A program made the translations under genes and the position numbers. A DNA stretch of 35,122 nt from a virus (Duplodnaviria > Heunggongvirae > Uroviricota > Caudoviricetes), in IMG/VR virus record IMGVR_UViG_2713896901_000010; one strand, 5' to 3'. Under the pieces are notes generated by a model that made no database searches, had not been told where the DNA came from, and saw nothing but the letters and a program-made list of their open reading frames with translations. Shown in pieces: positions 305-21,905 of this stretch. Position 1 is the first letter of the stretch, and the number at the start of each line of letters is the position of its first letter.

Positions 305-394
305 ATTTACATCGCACTCCTCTTGTGCCATAGTAATCGGGCACTGGCAAAATCCAGTGTCGGGATTGGTCTCCCGGATTACTAAGTGGCGCAT

Positions 395-417
395 ACCACG
401 CCAGACGTGGTTTTTTT
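395..417 (+). terminator. rho-independent terminator
   Basis: Stem accacg/cgtggt with 5-nt loop followed by T7 run 411-417. Confidence 0.6.
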
Positions 418-575
418 ATGCGTATAGCACAGTCATGCCAGAATTATGGTGGGCTGAATGGGGGTCCGAAAGGACGCCGGTACCACTTAGGCCGGTAAGA
501 CCAACTCCGTTCAGTTCACCACCATCTGATTGGTCTCAGCGGTGGTGATGTAATTCGCTAAGTGGAGACGCCATA

Positions 576-2952: not shown

Positions 2953-3024
2953 GTCGTTAATTCCTATACGTAGTTTTACGATACTGAAGCCCTGACGGTC
3001 TGGCCACCGTTGGGCTTCGCTGTT

Positions 3025-3786: not shown

Positions 3787-4398
3787 TTGAAAAACGCCAC
3801 ATTACTGATGTATGTTACAACAAGGAGCGATATTTTGAAAACCATATCTATATTAAAGGTTGCATTAGGCGTCGCTATTATTTTGACTCTCTCAATATTG
3901 TTTTATTTTTACCACAAAAAAACTGCTATTGCTCTTGATGGTCACGCGGCAAACTCATTTTTCTCAGAGTACATAGTGCCGCTATCAGGAAGCGGTATAA
4001 CAAATAAATATACTGACTATGACATCAAATATGGAATTGATGATGGGGAGACTATTGCATTACATGTAATCATTAAAAACCTAATGACAGTAAATAAAAA
4101 TACAGACTTCAACGATAAAAATACAATACATCACAACAACAGCAAAACATTAATTTCTTATAGTAGCAACATCTATACGGATAAATACCTAAAATACATC
4201 TCAGAAGATACAATAAAAGCAACCAGCGAAAAGTTAAAAAACATATATTGTGCATCCGGCAGTTTTCACAAATTATCGCCGCAAGAGCGTTTATTCTACG
4301 AAGCAAGAAAACAACGTAAGTCAATAATATTCCATTATTATGCTGATTCAGGGGAGTCACTCATATTTAATATTGGGGTTTCCCCTGAATCATGCTAA
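3787..4398 (+). CDS. membrane-anchored protein of unknown function at the sieA position
   Basis: Most likely start is TTG 3835 (AAGGAG 3822-3827, 7-nt spacer), alternative ATG 3808; one N-terminal TM helix then an Asn/Lys/Tyr-rich domain; very AT-rich. Confidence 0.55.
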   Translation: MKNATLLMYVTTRSDILKTISILKVALGVAIILTLSILFYFYHKKTAIALDGHAANSFFSEYIVPLSGSGITNKYTDYDIKYGIDDGETIALHVIIKNLMTVNKNTDFNDKNTIHHNNSKTLISYSSNIYTDKYLKYISEDTIKATSEKLKNIYCASGSFHKLSPQERLFYEARKQRKSIIFHYYADSGESLIFNIGVSPESC

Positions 4399-4409: not shown

Positions 4410-7400
4410 TCACCGCATCACCGGATCCACCTGGTTTATTAGTGGCGCAATCCAGAACAGGTTATTGCCTGGTATCAGGGTTCGGACATTATGCACAATA
4501 CGATCACCGGCATCACCATTCAACACTCCTGCGGTCACATCAATGATGCTATCCGCAAGACCAAATGACGGTCCGAATAGAGATCCTACGAATCCACGAC
4601 TGGCATACCTAGACTGTGTGCCAGTGCCAAATAAAGCCCCCAGCCCAACAGCACCACCAGTAGCCTTTTCAGCCATGTTGTTATATTCCATCAATGGCCC
4701 AAGAATACCGGATCTATCTATACCCTCAAGCACCAGCTTCTCTGGTGACCAGTCAACATTTTTCCCTTTCGATGCTTCTTTTAGCGCATAGACCAGTGAG
4801 CCAAGAGCAATCTGAAATGCAGTGCCATAATAAAATTGCGCAGTTCCTTCCTGTAACCCACCAAGTAGCGCACGGTTGTATGAAGCCGTTGTGAATGATT
4901 TAAACTGAAATATCGTTCGCCCCATTGGAGTACTCGCCCATAAAGGTGTGTCACCAATACCGGGGGTGATGATAGTGTTATTAACGTCTTTCAGAACCGC
5001 TGACTGGAATACTCCGGCAACGTACTGATCGTCCCATTTATCAAAGTTACCAATGTGCCATCCATCAATTACCTCACCATGTTTCTCGAACTCACTGCGA
5101 ATACGCGCAGCCATATTGTCGTTGATACCGAGTTTTGCCATGCGACGTGCAGAAAACGCACCAGACAAAATACCGTCTGACGTGAGCATTCCGTTCATGG
5201 ATTTGTTTATGTCATTAAATCGATCCATGAGTGTCAGCTTGCCGAAGGCATCAGTAATTCGCTCCATTCCTGCTTCGACTGCTGTTGTCCTGGAAGAACT
5301 GTCAACAAGATCACCAATTGCACGAGAACGTGAATGTAGTACAGCTTCCAATCCAATCCCCATCTTCAACATCTCTTCTTTGCTGGCCTTAAATGCCGGT
5401 GATTGGGATATCTGAGAAGCATAGCCTTTCATGGTGTTACGGAAACCATTAACCATAACCCCTCTGGCCAGATCTGGAATAGCTGATACTGTCATTCCAC
5501 CGAGTTTGGTCGTGAAGTTCACATCCCGCAGAAAAGCGCCAGCACGAACAAAAAACGAAGACGGATCATCAGGCATACCATATGTACCAACAAGACGATC
5601 GCGTAATGCTGTTATGTCTCTGAGATCATTTGCTCTTGATTTTGAAAGTCTGGACTGTTCTTTCCGTAATTCCTTTTCGTACTTTCGCATTAATGAATCG
5701 AGTTTACCCTGAGGAACAACTTCACCATTGCTCTCATAACGTGCTTTCAGATTTGCCACACTTTCGTCATATTTCGCCTTTATTTTTTCAGGCACTTCCC
5801 GTAACAGACTGTCATATTCGTCCTCAATTAATTGCAGACGCTCAGTCATAGTTCGTTTGCCAAATGTTCTCGTCAACTCAATTTCTGCTGCCGCTTCACG
5901 GATATGACGTTGCAGCACGTAATTCACATCACTTTCAAGATAATCCCTGATAAGACTATCAGGAACATTTAATGTTCTTTCTTTCGTACTACCTGCGGCT
6001 TTTACAGAAAATACGCTGACAAAATCCTGTGGAACCTTAGCACCAGTAATTTTATTAATTACGATATCCGCTGCAATTTCAGCATCCTCAGGATCCAGTG
6101 TTTTATTTCCTCTCGACCACCAGCCAACCAAAATACGTCGAAATTTATCGCGTTCACTGATTATTTTTCCAACTTTATATATGCGTGGGAAATAGCTTGC
6201 CTGGCCTAATGCTTTCAGTTCTTCATCTGGCGGCAATAAACCAAGCTTTTGCATTTCAACTTTCACCCGATTTAATACAGTTCGCATCGCCTGCGCCGTT
6301 TCCTGAACAACAGGATTAGCATGCACATCACCGCTTCGCATAGCATTCCCAACCTGCTGACGAAATGAATCAAAACTCATGTCACCACCATCAGCTTTAT
6401 ACTTTGCGTATGCCTGTTTATTTCCGACAACAACAGCAGCTTCTTCACGCTGCCATCCACGTGTACGGGTTTCTACAGCTACCGGTGTTTCAATCCCCCT
6501 TTCATTTCCTTTAAGGGTGAAATTATTTTCGGCTAACTCCAGCGTTGTTTTTCGCACCGTCTTGGACGGAGACTCCATTAACCTTGTCAAAGGAGTAAGA
6601 TAGCTCCCTGCTTTCCATGCAGCCTTTCCAACCCACCCACCGGAAACAGGGGTTAAATCATCCAGAGTCGCTGTATCAATTTTCATAGCACCAACACTAC
6701 CACCATCGGAAAGCGAAGCGGCAGCCCTGTCAGTCGCTGATGTAATGCTCATATTATCAAGAGCATCAGCAACCTCACGTGTGGCTGCAGCCCGGACGGA
6801 TGGCGAAAGCGCAACACCAGCACTGGCAAACACGCCGCTCATCATCGCACCCGCTGCAACGTGAGCGGCACTTTCACCCCATGAGCGTGTTATTTGCTGA
6901 TTATTCAGTACAACCTCGCTTAATGCTGTACCGGCAGCACCAATCGCAATCTGTGAGCCAATACGCGCCAGTGCCCCTCCTTGAGCACCGGGAATAAACA
7001 TTGACGCAACAGTAACCGGATCCATTCCCGCAGCAATACTGGCAAGGGTTCCAACTACGCCAGCATCAGACAATAAACGTCTGTCTTCATTTTCATCATC
7101 TATCTGCTGCTTAATCCACGCCGTTTCCTCTGGCGATCGGGAATCTGCAAATTTCGCCCCCCAGTATTCATAACCGTGCAACTCATTTTTATCAGCATAT
7201 GGGTTATAACCCTCGACCGGTTCAAACTGTCTGGCTGGGCGGAAAAAACCAGACAGAATATTGTTCTGTCGCATTGCAGCCCCCCATACGGAAGGCTCAG
7301 GTGGCAATGGCTCAGGATTAGCCCCTTCCGGAAGGGCAACATCAAACCCAGTTTGTTCCGGCAAAACATTACCTGACGGGATCAGTCCGTTATTAAGATC

Positions 7401-17167: not shown

Positions 17168-17460
17168 TCCTGTTCACTGGCCTCTTTGGCCATCTTCAAA
17201 TACTGTTCAGGGCAATGCGCCATAACGCGCTGAAACAGTTCCAGCGCCAGATTGCGTTGCCCCTCATTAAATGCCATTGCCATAGCGTCCATCGGTGAGA
17301 TAGCGGAAAACACACGGCCTTTCTCCAGCACCGACCAGACAACGCGACGCCCCTGTTCACTGCTCATGACAAAGCGAATGTCATCAATTTCACGCTGTGC
17401 CATGTCACGTTGCTTACGGGCGTTTTCTTCTTTCAGTTGATCGTCTTCGTAATCTGTCAT
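17164..17460 (-). CDS. hypothetical protein (98 aa)
   Basis: ATGA-type overlaps with portal stop and scaffold start. Confidence 0.45.
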   Translation of the reverse strand: MTDYEDDQLKEENARKQRDMAQREIDDIRFVMSSEQGRRVVWSVLEKGRVFSAISPMDAMAMAFNEGQRNLALELFQRVMAHCPEQYLKMAKEASEQE

Positions 17461-19136
17461 TGTGATTGCCCACCCTGACCACTAACTGCATTCGCCATAG
17501 CTGACAAAACACTCGGATCCGAAGTTTTAGCTTCGCTTAGCGTCTTGGCACCCTGTGCCGCCGCCATCCCCATCGCCATCATTTGTTGCTGCTGTTGTTG
17601 CTGTGCCCGTTGCTGGCGAGCCTGCTCAACCTGTTCCTGCGGAACAATGACGGTTGGAGACACTCCGGACATATCAGCGAATGCATCGATCGCCTGATCA
17701 ACGTTGAGTTTGTCGAGAGCTTCTGGTTTCGCTTGCGCAAGTTGACCAATGAAGTTGACCGTGGATGCCAGACTAGACAGGCCGATAGACTTCTGCGCCT
17801 GAGCCATGACGGAAATGTATTCGACCTTCAGGGGCATACCTTCCATCGCGTCAGGCGGTGGCGGCAGCATGTTTTTACGCACCATCATCGAGAAAGCGCG
17901 GTCAATGAGAGGATTAAGACATTCGTCGTTCAGACGCTCCAGAACCGGCCCCAACATCAGAAGTTTTTCTTCTTTCATTTCGATCACCGCTTCAACAGGC
18001 ATCGAGCGGGTATTGATGTTCTGCAACATCATGAACAGATCGACAAAGTAGGCGCTGTTAATGATTTGACGAGTGTCCTGAATGTCTGCCACCAAATCTG
18101 CTGTACTGGGGTTAACCAGATAAGCAGGCCTGAAACCATCCTGACCAGTAATCTGATCGATATACGTGATGTCGCCAGGAAGAAGGGAGGCACGCTGATT
18201 CTTGAGGGAAGTCGGAGCAACCATCGGCGGATTGGTGGCTTTATCAATCAACTGCGACTTGCGCTTCTGGAGAAGCTGCAATGCCTTAACAGGTCCAAGC
18301 GCCAGCATACCCGGGCATGATGATCCATAAACATCTTCGCCGTTAACTTCCCAGCGCGGAGCCATAATTGGAAACTCATCGAATCCGGACTCACGCAACA
18401 ACTTGTCGTTATCGCCACCAACCTCGTAATAAACCGATTTGAATGGCTTGTTCTTGCTATCCAGCTTCGATGTATCGCGGTCAATGTTCGGGTAAACCGA
18501 ATGCATCACTTCAATCCACTTCTCGTAGGTGCCGCTTTCCCACATGCTTTTTACGGATTCGCTGACGTTATTTAGTCCGAATTCCTGAACAAGCTGACGA
18601 ACAGTCATAGAGAACTTACGAAAACAGGTGTCCACACTGCCACGAGGTGAGTTAGCCAGGTAGTAACTTCCTATCGGGAATGGCATTGTACGAATGATGT
18701 CCTCGTCATCCTCCAGCACCGCCATTGCGCCAGTGCTGTATGTGCCGAGGCTTCCGTATAACTGCGGCAGCGACTGATAGAGATTCGACTTATTGAACAT
18801 ATCGTTCATGCGGTTCTGCACCGCCTCAAGCCACAACTTAACAGGGCCATAATCCATCATTTCAGGATCTGGCGTAGCCAGGCGAAACCACGGACGCGCG
18901 GGGCTTGTGATGCCAGACATCATGCCGCTGGCGAGAGTACGCGCCGCCATAGTCCCGGTCGAATCAATAATGCGTGTATTGCGTCGATCGTTACGGTTGA
19001 CCTCAGAAGTCAGAAAGCGGGAACCACGCGGGTTGATGTAATCACTCAACTCGCGCCAGTGCGGCTCGAACGACTGACGCTCGCTTTCAAGTTGTGCGAA
19101 CTGTTTGTTCAATCGCTCTTTAGTTGTTTCCGCCAT
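17457..19136 (-). CDS. portal protein (559 aa)
   Basis: ATG 19136 with GGAG 8 nt upstream; size and position after terminase typical for portal; Gln-rich C-terminus. Confidence 0.85.
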   Translation of the reverse strand: MAETTKERLNKQFAQLESERQSFEPHWRELSDYINPRGSRFLTSEVNRNDRRNTRIIDSTGTMAARTLASGMMSGITSPARPWFRLATPDPEMMDYGPVKLWLEAVQNRMNDMFNKSNLYQSLPQLYGSLGTYSTGAMAVLEDDEDIIRTMPFPIGSYYLANSPRGSVDTCFRKFSMTVRQLVQEFGLNNVSESVKSMWESGTYEKWIEVMHSVYPNIDRDTSKLDSKNKPFKSVYYEVGGDNDKLLRESGFDEFPIMAPRWEVNGEDVYGSSCPGMLALGPVKALQLLQKRKSQLIDKATNPPMVAPTSLKNQRASLLPGDITYIDQITGQDGFRPAYLVNPSTADLVADIQDTRQIINSAYFVDLFMMLQNINTRSMPVEAVIEMKEEKLLMLGPVLERLNDECLNPLIDRAFSMMVRKNMLPPPPDAMEGMPLKVEYISVMAQAQKSIGLSSLASTVNFIGQLAQAKPEALDKLNVDQAIDAFADMSGVSPTVIVPQEQVEQARQQRAQQQQQQQMMAMGMAAAQGAKTLSEAKTSDPSVLSAMANAVSGQGGQSQ

Positions 19137-19357: not shown

Positions 19358-19447
19358 ATCAATGACTCCGTACGCAATTAAATTATTACCAATTTAACCA
19401 CATATGATTTATTTATCGTAGAAGGTTGACATTTGACGCGTGAATTA

Positions 19448-19462
19448 TTACCTTTCAGGTAA
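19448..19462. promoter_or_regulatory. operator dyad TTACC-N5-GGTAA (site C)
   Basis: ttacc tttca ggtaa, with TTGACA at 19426-19431. Confidence 0.5.
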
Positions 19463-19784
19463 CCAAAGAGCTCATTCCGGTTACTAACCTGACTGGCTTG
19501 TCGTTAAATTGAACAGGTGGAGTGAGCTTTTATTTTGAGCAGTACGGCGTATGGCACATGCGACGATAGCGGTCTGGATACGTTTAAGGGGCACCCTCCC
19601 TTGCTCGGGCAAACGAACCAGGTAGCCGGAATGTGCAAGTCGAGCGGTTTTATTCCGCGCACGGGGATTAACCATCCCGGCGATTCGGTGTGACGCCTCG
19701 GAAGAGACGAGGGTACAACGATGAGAGCATTTATGGAGCCGCGACAAAGTGTGGCGCCTTAACAGGCTAAGTGCTCTCAGCGTT

Positions 19785-19861
19785 GTGGCATTAGCTCAGT
19801 TGGACAGAGCAACCGCCTTCTAAGCGGTTGGTCGCAGGTTCGAATCCTGCATGCCACGCCA
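19785..19861 (+). tRNA. tRNA-Arg (anticodon UCU), phage-encoded
   Basis: Manual cloverleaf: acceptor GTGGCAT/ATGCCAC, U8, D-stem GCTC/GAGC with GG in loop, anticodon stem ACCGC/GCGGT, loop CUUCUAA, T-stem GCAGG/CCTGC with TTCGAAT loop, discriminator G, encoded CCA; differs from E. coli argU as I recall it. Confidence 0.9.
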
Positions 19862-19904
19862 GAATCACGCCTAAGGACCGTGATGCCAGAAGTTCCAGGT
19901 GCTT

Positions 19905-19946
19905 GGCGGTGATGGTTTCCCTTGAAGGACTATCACCGCCCTTTTT
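19905..19946 (+). terminator. hairpin terminator downstream of tRNA
   Basis: ggcggtgat...atcaccgcc 9-bp stem, long loop, then CTTTTT. Confidence 0.5.
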
Positions 19947-20118
19947 ACAGCAGGACGCCATTGCGATGACTTCATGCTGTAAACCCGTACAGCCACGGAA
20001 GGCATAACTCATTGCTTCCAGTTCGCCCTGTTCGCCGGGTATTTTTTTACTTGAATTTTACCCTCAACAAACCAACATAGAACTTGGCATTTGCCATAAC
20101 TTTCACAAGGAGTCAGCC

Positions 20119-20418
20119 ATGAATGGTTGGAATAGAAAAAAGACTCAATATTTAGCTGAGTGCATCCACGAACACGAAAAAGCCGACGGAGTAACCTACG
20201 ATCCTAACGGTATGGTTAGCTACTGGAACACAAAATATAACCTCGTTCCGGCTGAACAGTTGCCAGCATTACAAAATCAGGTATCTCTCGAATTAGAAGC
20301 TCTACGCGGTGCTGAGACTAACCATGTAACAATTAGCAACATTGGTGCCGCTAAGTTTGGATTCGACTCTGTAATAGGGAATCATCTACCTAACTTCGAT
20401 CCGGAGCCAGTTAAGTAA
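20119..20418 (+). CDS. hypothetical protein (99 aa), moron between terL and portal
   Basis: ATG 20119 with AAGGAG at 6-nt spacing; opposite strand to all flanking late genes. Confidence 0.6.
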   Translation: MNGWNRKKTQYLAECIHEHEKADGVTYDPNGMVSYWNTKYNLVPAEQLPALQNQVSLELEALRGAETNHVTISNIGAAKFGFDSVIGNHLPNFDPEPVK

Positions 20419-20429
20419 TTTGCTGACCA

Positions 20430-21905
20430 TTATGCATAAGGGTCATAATCCGTTATGGCCCTTCCCTGCTGGCTTTGCTGTCCTGGTATATTTATGCGTT
20501 TCGACACCGGGAAAGCAAACGTCAGCAGTAGCGCATCGCCTTTACCCAGCGAACGCCCAAGACGCTCTTTGATATCTTCCTTCGGTTCGATAACGATTTT
20601 ACCGTCCACACGAACTTTGTACTCTGCCGCCGACAGGTCGTCTGCAGTTTCCTGGTCATCCAGCATGCCGCCCAGCCTCAGCCATGTCTTGCATGAATTG
20701 AACATCTCCCCACGCTTGTTGAGCATCTGCGGGTCAGTAGACGCGCCACCGAACGGAACAAGTTGCCATGTACGACCCCATCCGTCACCGATTGACTTCA
20801 GACCGGTTCCGTAACCGAAGTCGATGAACACCGCGTCAGCCTGGTACTGGTCTTCAAAGTCAGCGATACGCTTCGCCATAATCAGATCGTCAGTGGTCTT
20901 GTTGCCAGTCCACAGCACCTTACTGTGCAGCCCCTGCCTCAGGTATATCACCGCGTCATCAACGCCTGAGTATGCCGGGTCAACGCCGATTATCACCGGA
21001 GCATGTGCAACCTGCACAGCGGTTACCACCCGTTTCATTGCCTCGTCAGTAAGGCCGGTAGGGATAAACTGCAATTCAGATGCATCCGGGAATATGCCGC
21101 GCACACGGATTTTAACGAAGTCGCTGTCTTCCCCGTAGTCATCAACCCATTTCTGCAACTGCTGTTTGTTAGTGCCTTCCACCGTCCGGCTGTCAATCTG
21201 CGCAGTTTTCCAGCGGTGTTTATATTTGCGGAAACATTCGCGGAAACGTCCGGTGTTACGTGTAGGGTTTCCAAACGCCACCCAGATAATCTCAGTGTCT
21301 TCGTCCGTAAGCGCACCCTCAGCAACTTCCCACACCAGATCCGCAATGTTCGACGCTTCATCGAATACCACGATGATGCGTTTGCGCTCGTTGTGTAGTC
21401 CGGCGAATGCCTCAGTGTTGTGCTCAGACCAGGGGATTGCGTCAGCTCGCCACCGCTTGTCGTGCCCAGGGTCATTGCTGTACATCGCGGTAGCGGTACA
21501 GGTAAACCAGTCTTTCGTGATAGCAAGGTTCGACCACTTGATAATTTCCGGCCAGGTCTTCGTTCGTAGCTGGTTGTCGGTGTTGGCGGTCACCACGACC
21601 TTACAATCCTCGCAAGTGGACATGCCCCAGTTGATCAGCATTGAGATGAATGCGGATTTACCAATACCGTGACCAGAAGCGCGTGCCAGCATAAGCGGCT
21701 GATAGCGCGTCTCTGGATTCTGCAGGTGATCACGTATCTCTCGGAACGCATCAGCCTGCCACTGACGTGGGCCGGTAGCATGTGCCAGTTCAGTCCCCTC
21801 TTCCCCCCAAGGGAACGCATAGAGGGCATAGCCAAGCGGATCGTGAGTGAACCCTGCAATATCCTCGATTAACTGCTCTTCAGGAGATAACGCTGTATCT
21901 GTCAC
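20430..21905 (-). CDS. terL: terminase large subunit (491 aa)
   Basis: GTG start overlapping terS stop (GTGA); Walker-A-like ARASGHGIGKS near N-terminus; size and position. Confidence 0.9.
   Translation of the reverse strand: MTDTALSPEEQLIEDIAGFTHDPLGYALYAFPWGEEGTELAHATGPRQWQADAFREIRDHLQNPETRYQPLMLARASGHGIGKSAFISMLINWGMSTCEDCKVVVTANTDNQLRTKTWPEIIKWSNLAITKDWFTCTATAMYSNDPGHDKRWRADAIPWSEHNTEAFAGLHNERKRIIVVFDEASNIADLVWEVAEGALTDEDTEIIWVAFGNPTRNTGRFRECFRKYKHRWKTAQIDSRTVEGTNKQQLQKWVDDYGEDSDFVKIRVRGIFPDASELQFIPTGLTDEAMKRVVTAVQVAHAPVIIGVDPAYSGVDDAVIYLRQGLHSKVLWTGNKTTDDLIMAKRIADFEDQYQADAVFIDFGYGTGLKSIGDGWGRTWQLVPFGGASTDPQMLNKRGEMFNSCKTWLRLGGMLDDQETADDLSAAEYKVRVDGKIVIEPKEDIKERLGRSLGKGDALLLTFAFPVSKRINIPGQQSQQGRAITDYDPYA

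Follow-up and report, generated by a model that had tools for sequence, protein, structure and literature searches.

The question raised by this locus is what a tRNA gene on the + strand is doing between late phage genes of the minus strand, preceded by approximately 320 bp of sequence without ORFs. It was studied in a window, i.e., the whole 35,122-nt stretch of phage DNA that was analyzed. The tRNA was called as Arg(tct) by ARAGORN and belongs to the Rfam tRNA family (RF00005), with a score of 73.3 bits against a gathering score of 29. On these two results the gene is genuine, and the reading as a pseudogene fails. The neighbors are those originally predicted, i.e., the portal gene (17457-19136, Pfam PF12236) and terL (20430-21905, assigned by synteny with annotated epsilon15 and SPN1S), both on the minus strand.

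The tRNA-Arg itself is ordinary. A tRNA at this site had been considered unusual, but relatives have a tRNA annotated at the same position, i.e., typing phages 9 and 10, phiv142-3, SPC32H/N, and one Klebsiella phage, and the annotation already exists in phiV10-type phages. AGA accounted for 12.5% of Arg codons (7.4 per 1000) in the ORFs of the window, an approximately three-fold enrichment over E. coli usage, and was concentrated in two large tail genes and some early genes. The expected enrichment of AGA was found, whereas its expected concentration in AT-rich morons was not. The tRNA may supplement AGA decoding. It does not differ in this from other phage-borne rare-codon tRNAs (argU-type tRNA-Arg UCU; P1 trnI), being likewise an AGA-decoding tRNA, and taken alone it would mean routine codon supplementation without further significance. 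No att-like direct repeats were found around the tRNA, and phage synteny is unbroken with portal and terminase genes on both sides, which agrees with the earlier view that the site is not a prophage boundary. The features of the locus are listed in Table 1.

Table 1. Features recognized at the tRNA-Arg locus; positions are those of the window.
Feature	Position	Strand	Basis
Promoter-like TTGACA-N17-TACCTT	19426-19454	+	Read from sequence; kept in five diverged Uetakevirus-type groups
Repressor operator dyad TTACCTTTCAGGTAA, overlapping the -10	19448-19462		Repeat count; epsilon15 repressor site at equivalent place
Long hairpin of the leader, AAAGAGCTCATTCC ... GGAGTGAGCTTTT, possible stem for RNase III-type processing	19465-19531	+	Minimum-free-energy fold
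Core RNA, approximately 170 nt	19543-19718	+	Covariance model R1, covariation, strand test
Core helix P1	19545-19552/19558-19565	+	
Core helix P2, enclosing a variable domain	19573-19576/19619-19622	+	
Core invariant 19-mer, followed by a variable hairpin	19621-19639	+	
Core helix P5	19664-19667/19675-19678	+	
Core pseudoknot	19670-19673 with 19687-19690	+	
Core helix P6, loop GAAGAGA	19696-19700/19708-19712	+	
P7 stem (arms 19716-19729 and 19772-19785; cargo 19730-19771)	19716-19785	+	Arm covariation
tRNA-Arg(UCU) with CCA end encoded in the DNA, filling the tRNA/tRNA-like slot	19785-19861	+	ARAGORN, Rfam
Trailer hairpin ATCACGCC..GGACCGTGAT	19864-19884	+	Comparison of sequences 3' of the slot
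Intrinsic terminator, 14-bp stem (19905-19940) then T-run	19905-19946	+	Terminator scan
Second, weaker terminator-like hairpin with T7 run	20010-20039	+	Local scan
Sole co-oriented downstream ORF, 99 aa	20119-20418	+	ORF list

A TTGACA with an operator had been predicted at the 5' end of the ORF-free interval, and both are present. The TTGACA (19426-19431) is followed at a spacing of 17 nt by the -10 sequence TACCTT (TAnnnT). A simple sigma-70 scan detected no canonical promoter at 19426-19454, the score being below threshold, and across the family the scan performed no better than in shuffles (31/176 versus 40/214). The site is accepted as a promoter only because its architecture is conserved in five diverged Uetakevirus-type groups, in which both hexamers and the 17-nt spacing beneath the operator are constant and the spacers differ. 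This conservation is visible only by group-wise inspection. The window contains 12 copies of the dyad TTACC-N5-GGTAA where 0.67 would be expected, and none of 100 shuffles reached 12, so the predicted operator common to sites across the phage is real. The epsilon15 record marks a repressor site at the equivalent position. Over the stretch homologous to the leader hairpin, the same record gives an 'RNaseIII mRNA processing' site, and the hairpin may be cleaved by RNase III-type processing. Folding of the putative transcript 19455-19950 gave z = -4.8, with an equally good fold in none of 100 shuffles, which supports the local hairpins noted in the interval.

On comparative evidence, the stretch 19543-19718 of the window belongs to a discrete RNA family present in unrelated phages. 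By BLAST, the same 165-245 nt were recovered, always with an identical 5' edge, from lambdoid phages including Stx phages, P1-type phages (P1, P7, and D6), and Uetakeviruses, and also from Klebsiella, Enterobacter, and Stenotrophomonas phages. The covariance model R1 gave a single match in the window, with 135.2 bits and E = 1e-39. The family was found in 1,839 of 5,426 complete E. coli genomes, i.e., about a third, where RefSeq has no annotation under the element. Searches of Rfam 15, at gathering thresholds over the whole window and at E <= 10 over this region, detected only the tRNA, and a scan of nine diverse family loci at E <= 10 detected nothing on the element. All other Rfam 15 families, among them Y RNA/YrlA, tmRNA, RNase P, 6S, group I intron, and riboswitches, were rejected as candidates since they had no match over 19463-19784. 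A literature search by sequence and by context found no published description; the Pas sRNAs are unrelated, being short and Hfq-dependent.

The core comprises five covarying helices, one of them a pseudoknot. In 52 non-redundant copies, 96.8% of cells at its 25 pairs can pair, and 12 of the 25 pairs change on both sides. Compensatory cells numbered 99, compared with 25.6 +/- 5.1 in shuffles (0/500 reach 99) and 5-18 in slid controls. The same pairs, including the pseudoknot pair, were returned by an unbiased mutual-information scan. An RNAalifold fold pairing the 5' block with the 19-mer was rejected in favor of the P1 hairpin, because it has no double changes, whereas helix P1 has some. Pairing was 96.8% on the + strand versus 83.9% on the minus strand, and the structure relies on G.U pairs (175 cells), which the minus strand lacks.

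The absence of a credible ORF from 19463-19784 was also borne out, as only short ORFs were found and no reading frame was conserved across homologues. It could still be argued that the locus encodes a small minus-strand protein, since a stop-free minus-strand frame is present in many copies and hypothetical proteins are annotated over the element in mEp460 (122 aa), Ayreon, and others. However, the inter-block lengths are not multiples of three but spread evenly over the three mod 3 classes, and the stop-free frames read the conserved blocks in 21 phase combinations. A minus-strand protein or an att site at a prophage end has practically no probability left: the former is refuted by the mod 3 and phase-combination tests, and the latter by the direct-repeat test and the continuous late-gene synteny. 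The comparisons demonstrate that the core is a structured element that is conserved, strand-specific, and non-coding, and that it is common to unrelated phages.

In every context examined, the element sits in what is predicted to be a repressor-controlled early transcript, i.e., at the P_L nut/put slot, behind an operator-covered promoter, or in the ban operon of phage P1. Lambdoid phages have cI first, then a terminator, the promoter, the element, another terminator, and the early-left genes. The dyad at this promoter is that of the cro-cI region, and the promoter is therefore P_L. One lambdoid locus (L093) has three such sites against 0.15 expected, with 0/200 shuffles reaching three, and a second (L152) shows a like pattern; in the 2H10 group, the operator match is statistically weak. 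Expression in lysogens, as part of a cI transcript with the element in the rexAB slot, was rejected, since cI is followed by a terminator and the element has an operator-bearing promoter in front of it. In phage P1, the element lies within the C1-controlled ban operon, with the core 2.6 kb from the promoter and no terminator predicted between core and ban. Terminators lie ahead of the first ORF in lambdoid as well as Uetakevirus contexts, and no N-like protein was recognized downstream of the element. Each phage carries a single copy, with no second one after P_R; in 2H10, this is because only 44 nt lie between cro and the next gene. The orientation always agrees with the local direction of transcription.

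Three contexts without P7 (L115, L226, and L072) carry a hairpin and an rrn-type boxA approximately 50 nt past P6, the boxA matching the consensus UGCUCUUUAACAA at 13/13, 11/13, and 11/13 positions. At the equivalent position, the 3' arm of P7 reads TGCTCTCA in 72/99 copies and TGCTCTTT in 11/99. The arm in the window matches 6 of 13 rrn consensus positions and is base-paired inside P7.

The arms of P7 covary among variants, while UGCUCU in the 3' arm stays fixed. The arms enclose an exchangeable cargo of approximately 45 nt, of which 22 unrelated types were found. The cargo is swapped independently of the core: 51 copy pairs have cores at least 95% identical and unrelated cargo, and 242 pairs have cores less than 80% identical and cargo at least 90% identical. 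Antisense targeting of the phage's own sequence was rejected, as complementarity of the cargo and other variable segments to the rest of the phage was at chance level.

Such cassette-like behavior could suggest that the conserved feature acts as DNA, i.e., as a protein-binding array, single-strand origin, or recombination site. P7 is an imperfect inverted repeat with a retained internal mismatch, and its arms (CAAC...GTTG) superficially resemble the R''/R' boxes of integron attC and could mediate cargo exchange. Against this stand the + strand-only G.U pairs described above, the orientation that tracks local transcription, the promoter upstream and the terminator downstream. Integrase is not a regular neighbor, and homologous recombination between the conserved arms suffices for cargo exchange. 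We consider an action as DNA very improbable.

A tRNA or tRNA-like module abuts P7. The slot 3' of P7 holds tRNA-Arg or a module closed by GTGG...CCAC, some of these modules carrying D- and T-arms, and at some loci the unit of P7, cargo, and module is arrayed in repeats. In the window, the last G of the P7 3' arm is G1 of the tRNA, leaving no spacer. The original prediction left two choices for 19463-19784, a long tRNA leader or a separate structured RNA, and the second was retained. For a mere leader aiding expression, folding, or maturation of the adjacent tRNA, one can cite this zero spacing, the tRNA-like slot of other copies, and the 49 copies with an adjacent tRNA, all 49 on the strand of the element. 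However, no tRNA was detected near 107 of 156 copies, and degeneracy keeps the two most frequent lambdoid modules from being called as tRNAs, although the core beside them is fully conserved. In phage P1, the element lies 3' of a tRNA, with the core alone kept, and runs into the ribosome-binding site of ban. Ordinary tRNA leaders are short and are not known to be conserved across different tRNAs. A simple leader role is thus improbable.

Past the slot, the trailer hairpin is common to most family members regardless of slot content. A terminator-like site is placed within 450 nt 3' of the core in 133 of 176 unique contexts, and epsilon15 has an annotated rho-independent terminator at the position homologous to the second hairpin of the window. 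For the 99-aa ORF downstream, neither a family match nor a separate promoter was detected; the corresponding ORFs vary among relatives.

Taken together, the stretch 19426-19946 is best explained as a single early, repressor-controlled, non-coding transcription unit, which would run antisense within the late gene block. It would be transcribed as one precursor in the order of operator-covered promoter, leader hairpin, pseudoknotted core, P7 with cargo, tRNA-Arg(UCU), trailer hairpin, and one or two terminators. RNase P would cut at the 5' end of the tRNA or tRNA-like module, and the 5' end of the RNA would be set by the leader stem or the transcription start. For the function, our best guess, offered tentatively and from sequence comparison, is a cis-acting anti-termination element. 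Working in cis, the core would affect the RNA polymerase that transcribes it, either by itself or with Nus factors, which may load on the boxA-like 3' arm of P7. The long untranslated early transcript and the genes past its terminators would become resistant to Rho and intrinsic termination, and the core would fulfil, as RNA, the function of nutL-N in lambda or putL in HK022. The concept of RNA-only antitermination comes from the put study (PMC9378689), and that of boxA and of Rho attacking long untranslated transcripts from PMC7665894.

The promoter-proximal P_L position, the terminators before the first ORF, and the lack of a recognized N-like protein argue for anti-termination, and the boxA past P6 in three contexts and the UGCUCU in the P7 3' arm suggest Nus coupling. 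Several observations count against it. The core has no put similarity and occurs as a single copy per phage, unlike putL/putR, and the boxA-like arm here matches at only 6/13 positions and is paired within P7. In the Uetakevirus context, one small variable ORF past the terminators leaves little to antiterminate. The distance of the P1 core from its promoter, the lack of a predicted terminator before ban, and the weak operator match of the 2H10 group may be added. The hypervariable cargo and the conserved tRNA-like slot are left unexplained by a cis role and would fit a released RNA better.

Such a released RNA is the main rival, a possible though somewhat doubtful one. RNase P and 5' processing would free the core, P7, and cargo as a stable, trans-acting RNA, made immediately at infection or induction. 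It would bind a conserved host or phage macromolecule or a small molecule, with the cargo as specificity module, and serve as a decoy, sponge, scaffold, or anti-defence RNA, i.e., a small enterobacterial analogue of GOLLD/ROOL. The slot past P7, always a tRNA or an acceptor-stem-like module meeting P7 at G1 without spacer, would be a natural RNase P signal. The arrays at some loci, the 22 cargo types exchanged independently of the core, the terminator of its own in most contexts, and the retention of the core alone in phage P1 fit as well, and the long blocks that stay unpaired and invariant point to a binding partner that is itself conserved. GOLLD and ROOL are also phage RNAs near tRNAs, the variable part of GOLLD sometimes containing them (PMC12286853). 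On the other side, cargo complementarity to the rest of the phage is not above chance, GOLLD, ROOL, and all other Rfam models gave no match, and a trans role does not explain the consistent P_L-proximal position before terminators and the adjacent boxA. It is conceivable, though rather unlikely, that core, cargo stem, and tRNA-like slot together make up a new type of modular phage RNA device, produced at once on infection or induction in P1, Stx, and many other enterobacterial phages. Its scaffold, conserved and pseudoknotted, would contact RNA polymerase or some other host machinery with no need for a phage protein; the exchangeable hairpin attached to it would confer specificity, and tRNA-like punctuation would set the RNA free.

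If confirmed, the element would be an overlooked, highly conserved structured RNA of such well-studied phages as P1, Stx-converting, and other lambdoid phages, carried by roughly one in three complete E. coli genomes, and some phage records would carry spurious small proteins over it. It occupies the site of the lambdoid anti-termination signal in phages showing no N protein and could therefore explain early-left gene expression there. Were antitermination its role, the antiterminators that are RNA-only or Nus-assisted could gain a third class, larger than the others; if it is instead released with its exchangeable cargo, GOLLD and ROOL would have a counterpart that is tractable in E. coli.

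Among known systems, HK022 put is likewise a cis-encoded phage RNA just past repressor-controlled P_L and ahead of terminators, in lambdoid phages without a recognizable N protein. The put RNA, approximately 70 nt with two stems and no pseudoknot described (PMC9378689), is smaller than the core of approximately 170 nt and five helices including a pseudoknot. It is present in two copies per phage, after P_L and after P_R, whereas the core has one copy and is also found outside lambdoid phages. The defining activity of put is to suppress termination in cis through the zinc-binding domain of the RNA polymerase beta' subunit. The model R1 detected nothing in the HK022 immunity region.

The loop GAAGAGA of P6 resembles the boxB loop of lambda nutL, GAAGA. 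The family also shares features with Nus signals, i.e., lambda nut and the boxA of rrn and CRISPR arrays. These are the rrn-type boxA past the core in three contexts, the UGCUCU fixed in the P7 3' arm, and a predicted long untranslated transcript of the kind attacked by Rho (PMC7665894). A lambda-type nut is not indicated, as no N-like protein was recognized and the boxB-like P6 here precedes the boxA-like arm. The nut and rrn leaders have no counterpart of the large conserved core.

The likeness to GOLLD and ROOL is one of context only, these being structured phage or prophage RNAs often found beside tRNAs. Both are much larger than the core, and their main known sources are Lactobacillales and rumen, lake, and marine samples rather than Enterobacteriaceae. 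GOLLD combines a conserved with a variable part, the latter able to hold tRNAs; its expression goes up during lysis, and many of its RNAs exceed 800 nt (PMC12286853). Their Rfam models gave no match at E <= 10 in the window region and the nine diverse loci. Maturation punctuated by tRNAs is exemplified by the stable RNAs in the T4 tRNA cluster and by MALAT1-mascRNA. The RNA beside the slot is unrelated to these examples, and its punctuation is a predicted one. As in those systems, a tRNA or tRNA-like module directly abuts the structured RNA, and RNase P would therefore define its 3' end.

The ORF-free stretch 5' of the phage tRNA-Arg(UCU) gene is a structured, non-coding RNA of the plus strand. 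In the alignment, invariant blocks alternate with variable-length hairpins. A hand-built structure of 25 pairs, i.e., helices P1, P2, P5, and P6 and a pseudoknot of the P5 loop with a downstream GGUG, was assessed on 52 copies of at most 96% identity. It was paired at 96.8%, versus 88.2% in shuffles and 29-53% with slid partners. Both sides had changed at 12 pairs, and compensatory cells numbered 99, versus 25.6 ± 5.1 in shuffles (0/500 reached 99) and 5-18 in slid controls; identities are 70% or higher and the carriers are mostly enterobacterial phages, so this covariation represents a modest number of independent events. The same Watson-Crick pairs topped an all-against-all mutual-information scan, e.g., a pair of helix P1 (G-C 28, A-T 21) and a pseudoknot pair (C-G 45, A-T 5). 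Because 175 cells are G.U, minus-strand pairing of the same structure was only 83.9%. Adjacent tRNAs were on the strand of the element in 49 of 49 cases. The covariance model built from the alignment had a single match in the window, 19543-19718 (135 bits). The suggestion of a separate structured RNA is borne out. The Rfam scan proposed for this region, run with release 15, matched no family to the element, either here or in nine diverse members, with a cut-off as lax as E <= 10.

The original prediction of no credible ORF in 19463-19784 was upheld. Inter-block lengths were evenly distributed across the three mod-3 classes, and in stop-free minus-strand frames the blocks were read in 21 phase combinations; annotated proteins over the element are therefore unsupported. 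This indicates that the hypothetical proteins placed over it in public phage records are mis-annotations. Such annotations, on either strand, are found in mEp460 (L005 2443-2811), Ayreon, phiSTEC1575-Stx2k, Tyrion (L006 2711-2872), and mEp390 (L011 1511-1753).

Besides close relatives, unrelated phages matched 19440-19790 at 70-83% identity in sensitive BLAST. These included lambdoid phages (mEp460, cdtI, 2H10, Ayreon, and Stx2c, Stx2a, and Stx2k phages), the P1 group (P1, P7, D6, SJ46, and RCS47), and Klebsiella, Enterobacter, and Stenotrophomonas phages. The 5' edge of the matches was constant at about window position 19544. Copies of the invariant 19-mer GGTAGCCGGAATGTGCAAG were found in 24 genome contigs, nearly all of Enterobacterales species, and, among the matches listed, in over 120 contigs of viruses, and two other conserved blocks gave additional copies. 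A profile search of the collected loci yielded 228 copies (182 unique), a sample biased toward conserved members because conserved-block patterns were used for gathering. The sampled family is confined to enterobacterial phages except for one Stenotrophomonas phage record. Of complete E. coli genomes, 1,839/5,426 carry the element, on chromosomes and P1-like plasmids, and no RefSeq annotation lies under it in those 1,839.

In epsilon15, the type phage of the genus, only a remnant is left (L004 2549-2652), made up of hairpin P1 and the first part of P2. The remaining core and the tRNA were lost, and the epsilon15 record places an RNase III processing site here, on the other strand. One IMG/VR contig (L053, 2791355294_000005) has two full cores, 3994-4154 and 4801-4959, on the same strand about 650 nt apart and downstream of one cI-type gene. 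The second may be decaying, since its P6 contains a mismatch and some positions that are invariant elsewhere have changed. A genuine full copy on a 1.7-kb contig of a 'Bacillota bacterium' MAG (L033) probably reflects a mis-binned enterobacterial phage contig. An Oscillospiraceae MAG locus (L021) shared the 19-mer only, the rest being unalignable, and was rejected as a chance match.

About two-thirds of unique downstream sequences have a 14-bp stem, P7, after the core. Its outer positions covary across variants (GAUGAGAGCA/UGCUCUCAGC, GGUAAGAGCA/UGCUCUUUCC, and GGAGAGAGCA/UGCUCUCCCC), and AGAGCA/UGCUCU and one internal mismatch are fixed. P7 encloses a variable segment (cargo) of 22 unrelated sequence types, usually 43-49 nt and up to about 106 nt long. 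Unrelated cargo was found in 51 copy pairs despite cores at least 95% identical, and cargo at least 90% identical in 242 copy pairs despite cores less than 80% identical; cargo is thus exchanged independently of the scaffold. The sequence directly after P7 (slot) always begins GTGG, and in the window the final G of P7 doubles as tRNA position G1. The slot is filled by tRNA-Arg(UCU) in 50 loci, and by modules of 90-130 nt, closing with ...CCAC then AAC or ACCA, in the remaining loci. D- and T-arms are recognisable in some modules. Intron-tolerant ARAGORN gave tRNA-like calls for such modules (Arg, Cys, and Glu types, 14-44 nt inserts); the two commonest lambdoid ones, being too degenerate, gave no call. 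The unit of P7, cargo, and module is repeated as an array in a few loci, and in phage P1 the core stands alone and leads into the ban ribosome-binding site. In 133/176 unique contexts, the core is followed within 450 nt by a terminator-like site.

Right after the element of Stenotrophomonas phage BUCT708 (L010 1631-1750), a sub-threshold RprA-like sRNA was detected (50.2 bits, gathering threshold 70, E = 0.0013). One other locus (L103) has an RprA-like 3' end downstream of the element, UUGCUGUGU..GUCUUUGCCC...terminator, and GCTGTGTGTAGTCTTGGCGG is present in several other trailers. All of these could be phage-borne mimics of a host sRNA.

The tRNA itself was confirmed between terL and the portal gene, with an Rfam score of 73.3 bits (threshold 29) and a DNA-encoded CCA end. 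The phage is a phiV10/epsilon15-type podophage, genus Uetakevirus, and shows 97-99% identity to phiV10, O157 typing phages 9 and 10, ZX5, and PAS61. Because a tRNA at the same position is already annotated in several relatives, the site is not unusual as had been claimed, and this part of the observation is correct but ordinary. The tRNA is not flanked by att-like direct repeats, consistent with the predicted absence of a prophage boundary; the 16-mers at 19134 and 19355 were rejected as att repeats, being the ribosome-binding/start regions of two minus-strand genes. AGA is frequent, as predicted, with 12.5% of Arg codons in the window ORFs (7.4 per 1000), roughly three times E. coli usage. 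The proposed link to AT-rich morons was not borne out: AGA is concentrated in two large tail genes and some early genes, and is absent from those for capsid, portal, and terminase. A reasonable role for the tRNA is codon supplementation. The neighbouring tRNA in phage P1, Ile2, reads AUA and is likewise a rare-codon tRNA.

Features located in the window
Feature	Position	Strand	Basis or remark
isrK	341-417		Rfam, 65.5 bits, above threshold
C4 antisense RNA	442-526		Rfam, 61.2 bits, above threshold
sar RNA	2954-3021		Rfam, 45.2 bits, above threshold
Portal gene	17457-19136	minus	PF12236
P7 arms	19716-29 and 19772-85
tRNA-Arg, anticodon TCT	19785-19861	+	ARAGORN; sole tRNA called in the window
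Trailer hairpin	19864-84		Common to most family members
Intrinsic terminator	19905-19946
terL	20430-21905	minus	By synteny
terS	Adjoins terL		PF03592
TTACC-N5-GGTAA copies	290, 1291, 19448, 22498, 22516, 26975, 27037, 28984, 29321, 29369, 30081, 30143

In 72 loci, the element is closely preceded, on its own strand, by an S24/HTH repressor gene. The lambdoid copies were considered as a lysogen RNA expressed with cI, and this was rejected since the repressor gene ends in a terminator and a separate promoter follows, in the 2H10 group TTGACA-16-CATAAT (11/12 positions match). In one immunity type (L093/L152), a single TTGCN-N5-NGCAA dyad lies in the cro-cI region and two more lie at the element promoter (3 sites versus 0.15 expected; 0/200 shuffles reached 3). 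The 2H10 type shows a weaker form of this shared-operator pattern. The promoter carries the phage's own operator and is therefore P_L, and the lambdoid order is P_L, the element as first transcribed, a terminator, and early-left genes. The window and four other diverged groups share a Uetakevirus-type unit start, TTGACA-N17-TACCTT, with the operator dyad covering the -10. In phage P1, the element is directly 3' of trnI in the C1-controlled ban operon. Thus, in all three contexts the element belongs to a repressor-controlled early transcript.

The operator dyad of the window, TTACC-N5-GGTAA, is shared across the phage as predicted, with 12 copies versus 0.67 expected. Copies cluster in pairs about 18-62 bp apart (22498/22516, 26975/27037, 29321/29369, and 30081/30143), the arrangement expected of repressor operators that act cooperatively at several promoters. 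The sole co-oriented ORF, 20119-20418, comes after two terminator-like sites, and no separate promoter was detected for it. A 22-bp near-perfect palindrome, TGACCATTATGCATAAGGGTCA (20424-20445), lies between the stop of this ORF (20418) and that of terL (20430); between these convergent units, it may serve either bidirectional termination or protein binding.

Expression, processing, and function of the element are predicted from sequence. A cis-acting role on elongating polymerase, i.e., anti-termination or anti-Rho, is tentatively favoured, at somewhat less than even confidence, because of the nutL/putL-like position, the lack of a recognisable N-like protein, the intervening terminators, the boxA coupling, and Rho attack on untranslated RNA. 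No N-like protein was found in the carriers; their first downstream genes lack an arginine-rich N-terminus and fall in function-unknown PHROG families, and terminators separate the promoter from the first ORF. In three P7-less contexts, a hairpin precedes an rrn-type boxA located some 50 nt past P6 (13/13, 11/13, and 11/13 matches); the expected number of perfect boxA 13-mers in the searched sequence is about 6e-4. Where P7 is present, its 3' arm occupies this position and keeps UGCUCU. The core appears to be repeatedly coupled to a Nus-factor loading signal. Long untranslated transcripts are rapidly terminated by Rho unless such a complex protects them (PMC7665894). The evidence against this role is substantial, i.e., a core not homologous to put, a single copy per phage, a poor boxA match in the window, and a Uetakevirus context that offers little to antiterminate. 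The main rival, only slightly less likely, is a released, trans-acting RNA, which would better account for a cargo that is exchanged and a tRNA-like processing slot that is conserved. This and the favoured cis-acting role are compatible, because put RNA stays on polymerase once untethered from the nascent transcript (PMC9378689).

Other RNAs occur in element-carrying phages. With its isrK, C4, and sar matches, three known small RNAs, the phage of the window carries an immI-type antirepressor control region in the style of P1/P22. In mEp460, C4 and isrK are likewise near an antirepressor gene (L005 206-394). Enterobacter phage Tyrion has an int-alpA RNA (RF02996, 44 bits, gathering threshold 35.8; L006 3708-3772) some 1 kb 3' of the element and in its orientation, amid small moron-like ORFs. 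The P1 ban operon (L003 769-870 and 2058-2177) has an annotated dicF-like region and a sub-threshold STnc100-like match (33 bits); non-coding RNAs abound in this element-carrying early operon.

The element takes the position of lambda nutL or HK022 putL, and put is the closest known system by position (PMC9378689), but the core is not a homologue of HK022 put. By signals, nut and rrn boxA are closest. By natural history, the closest are GOLLD and ROOL, phage RNAs near tRNAs with function unknown, and GOLLD sometimes has tRNAs in its variable part (PMC12286853). None of these is a family match, and the core was therefore filed, against the open-access literature compared, as a new family among RNA-based antitermination elements or tRNA-associated phage RNAs. 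Its design of scaffold, cargo, and punctuation is possibly a kind of its own.
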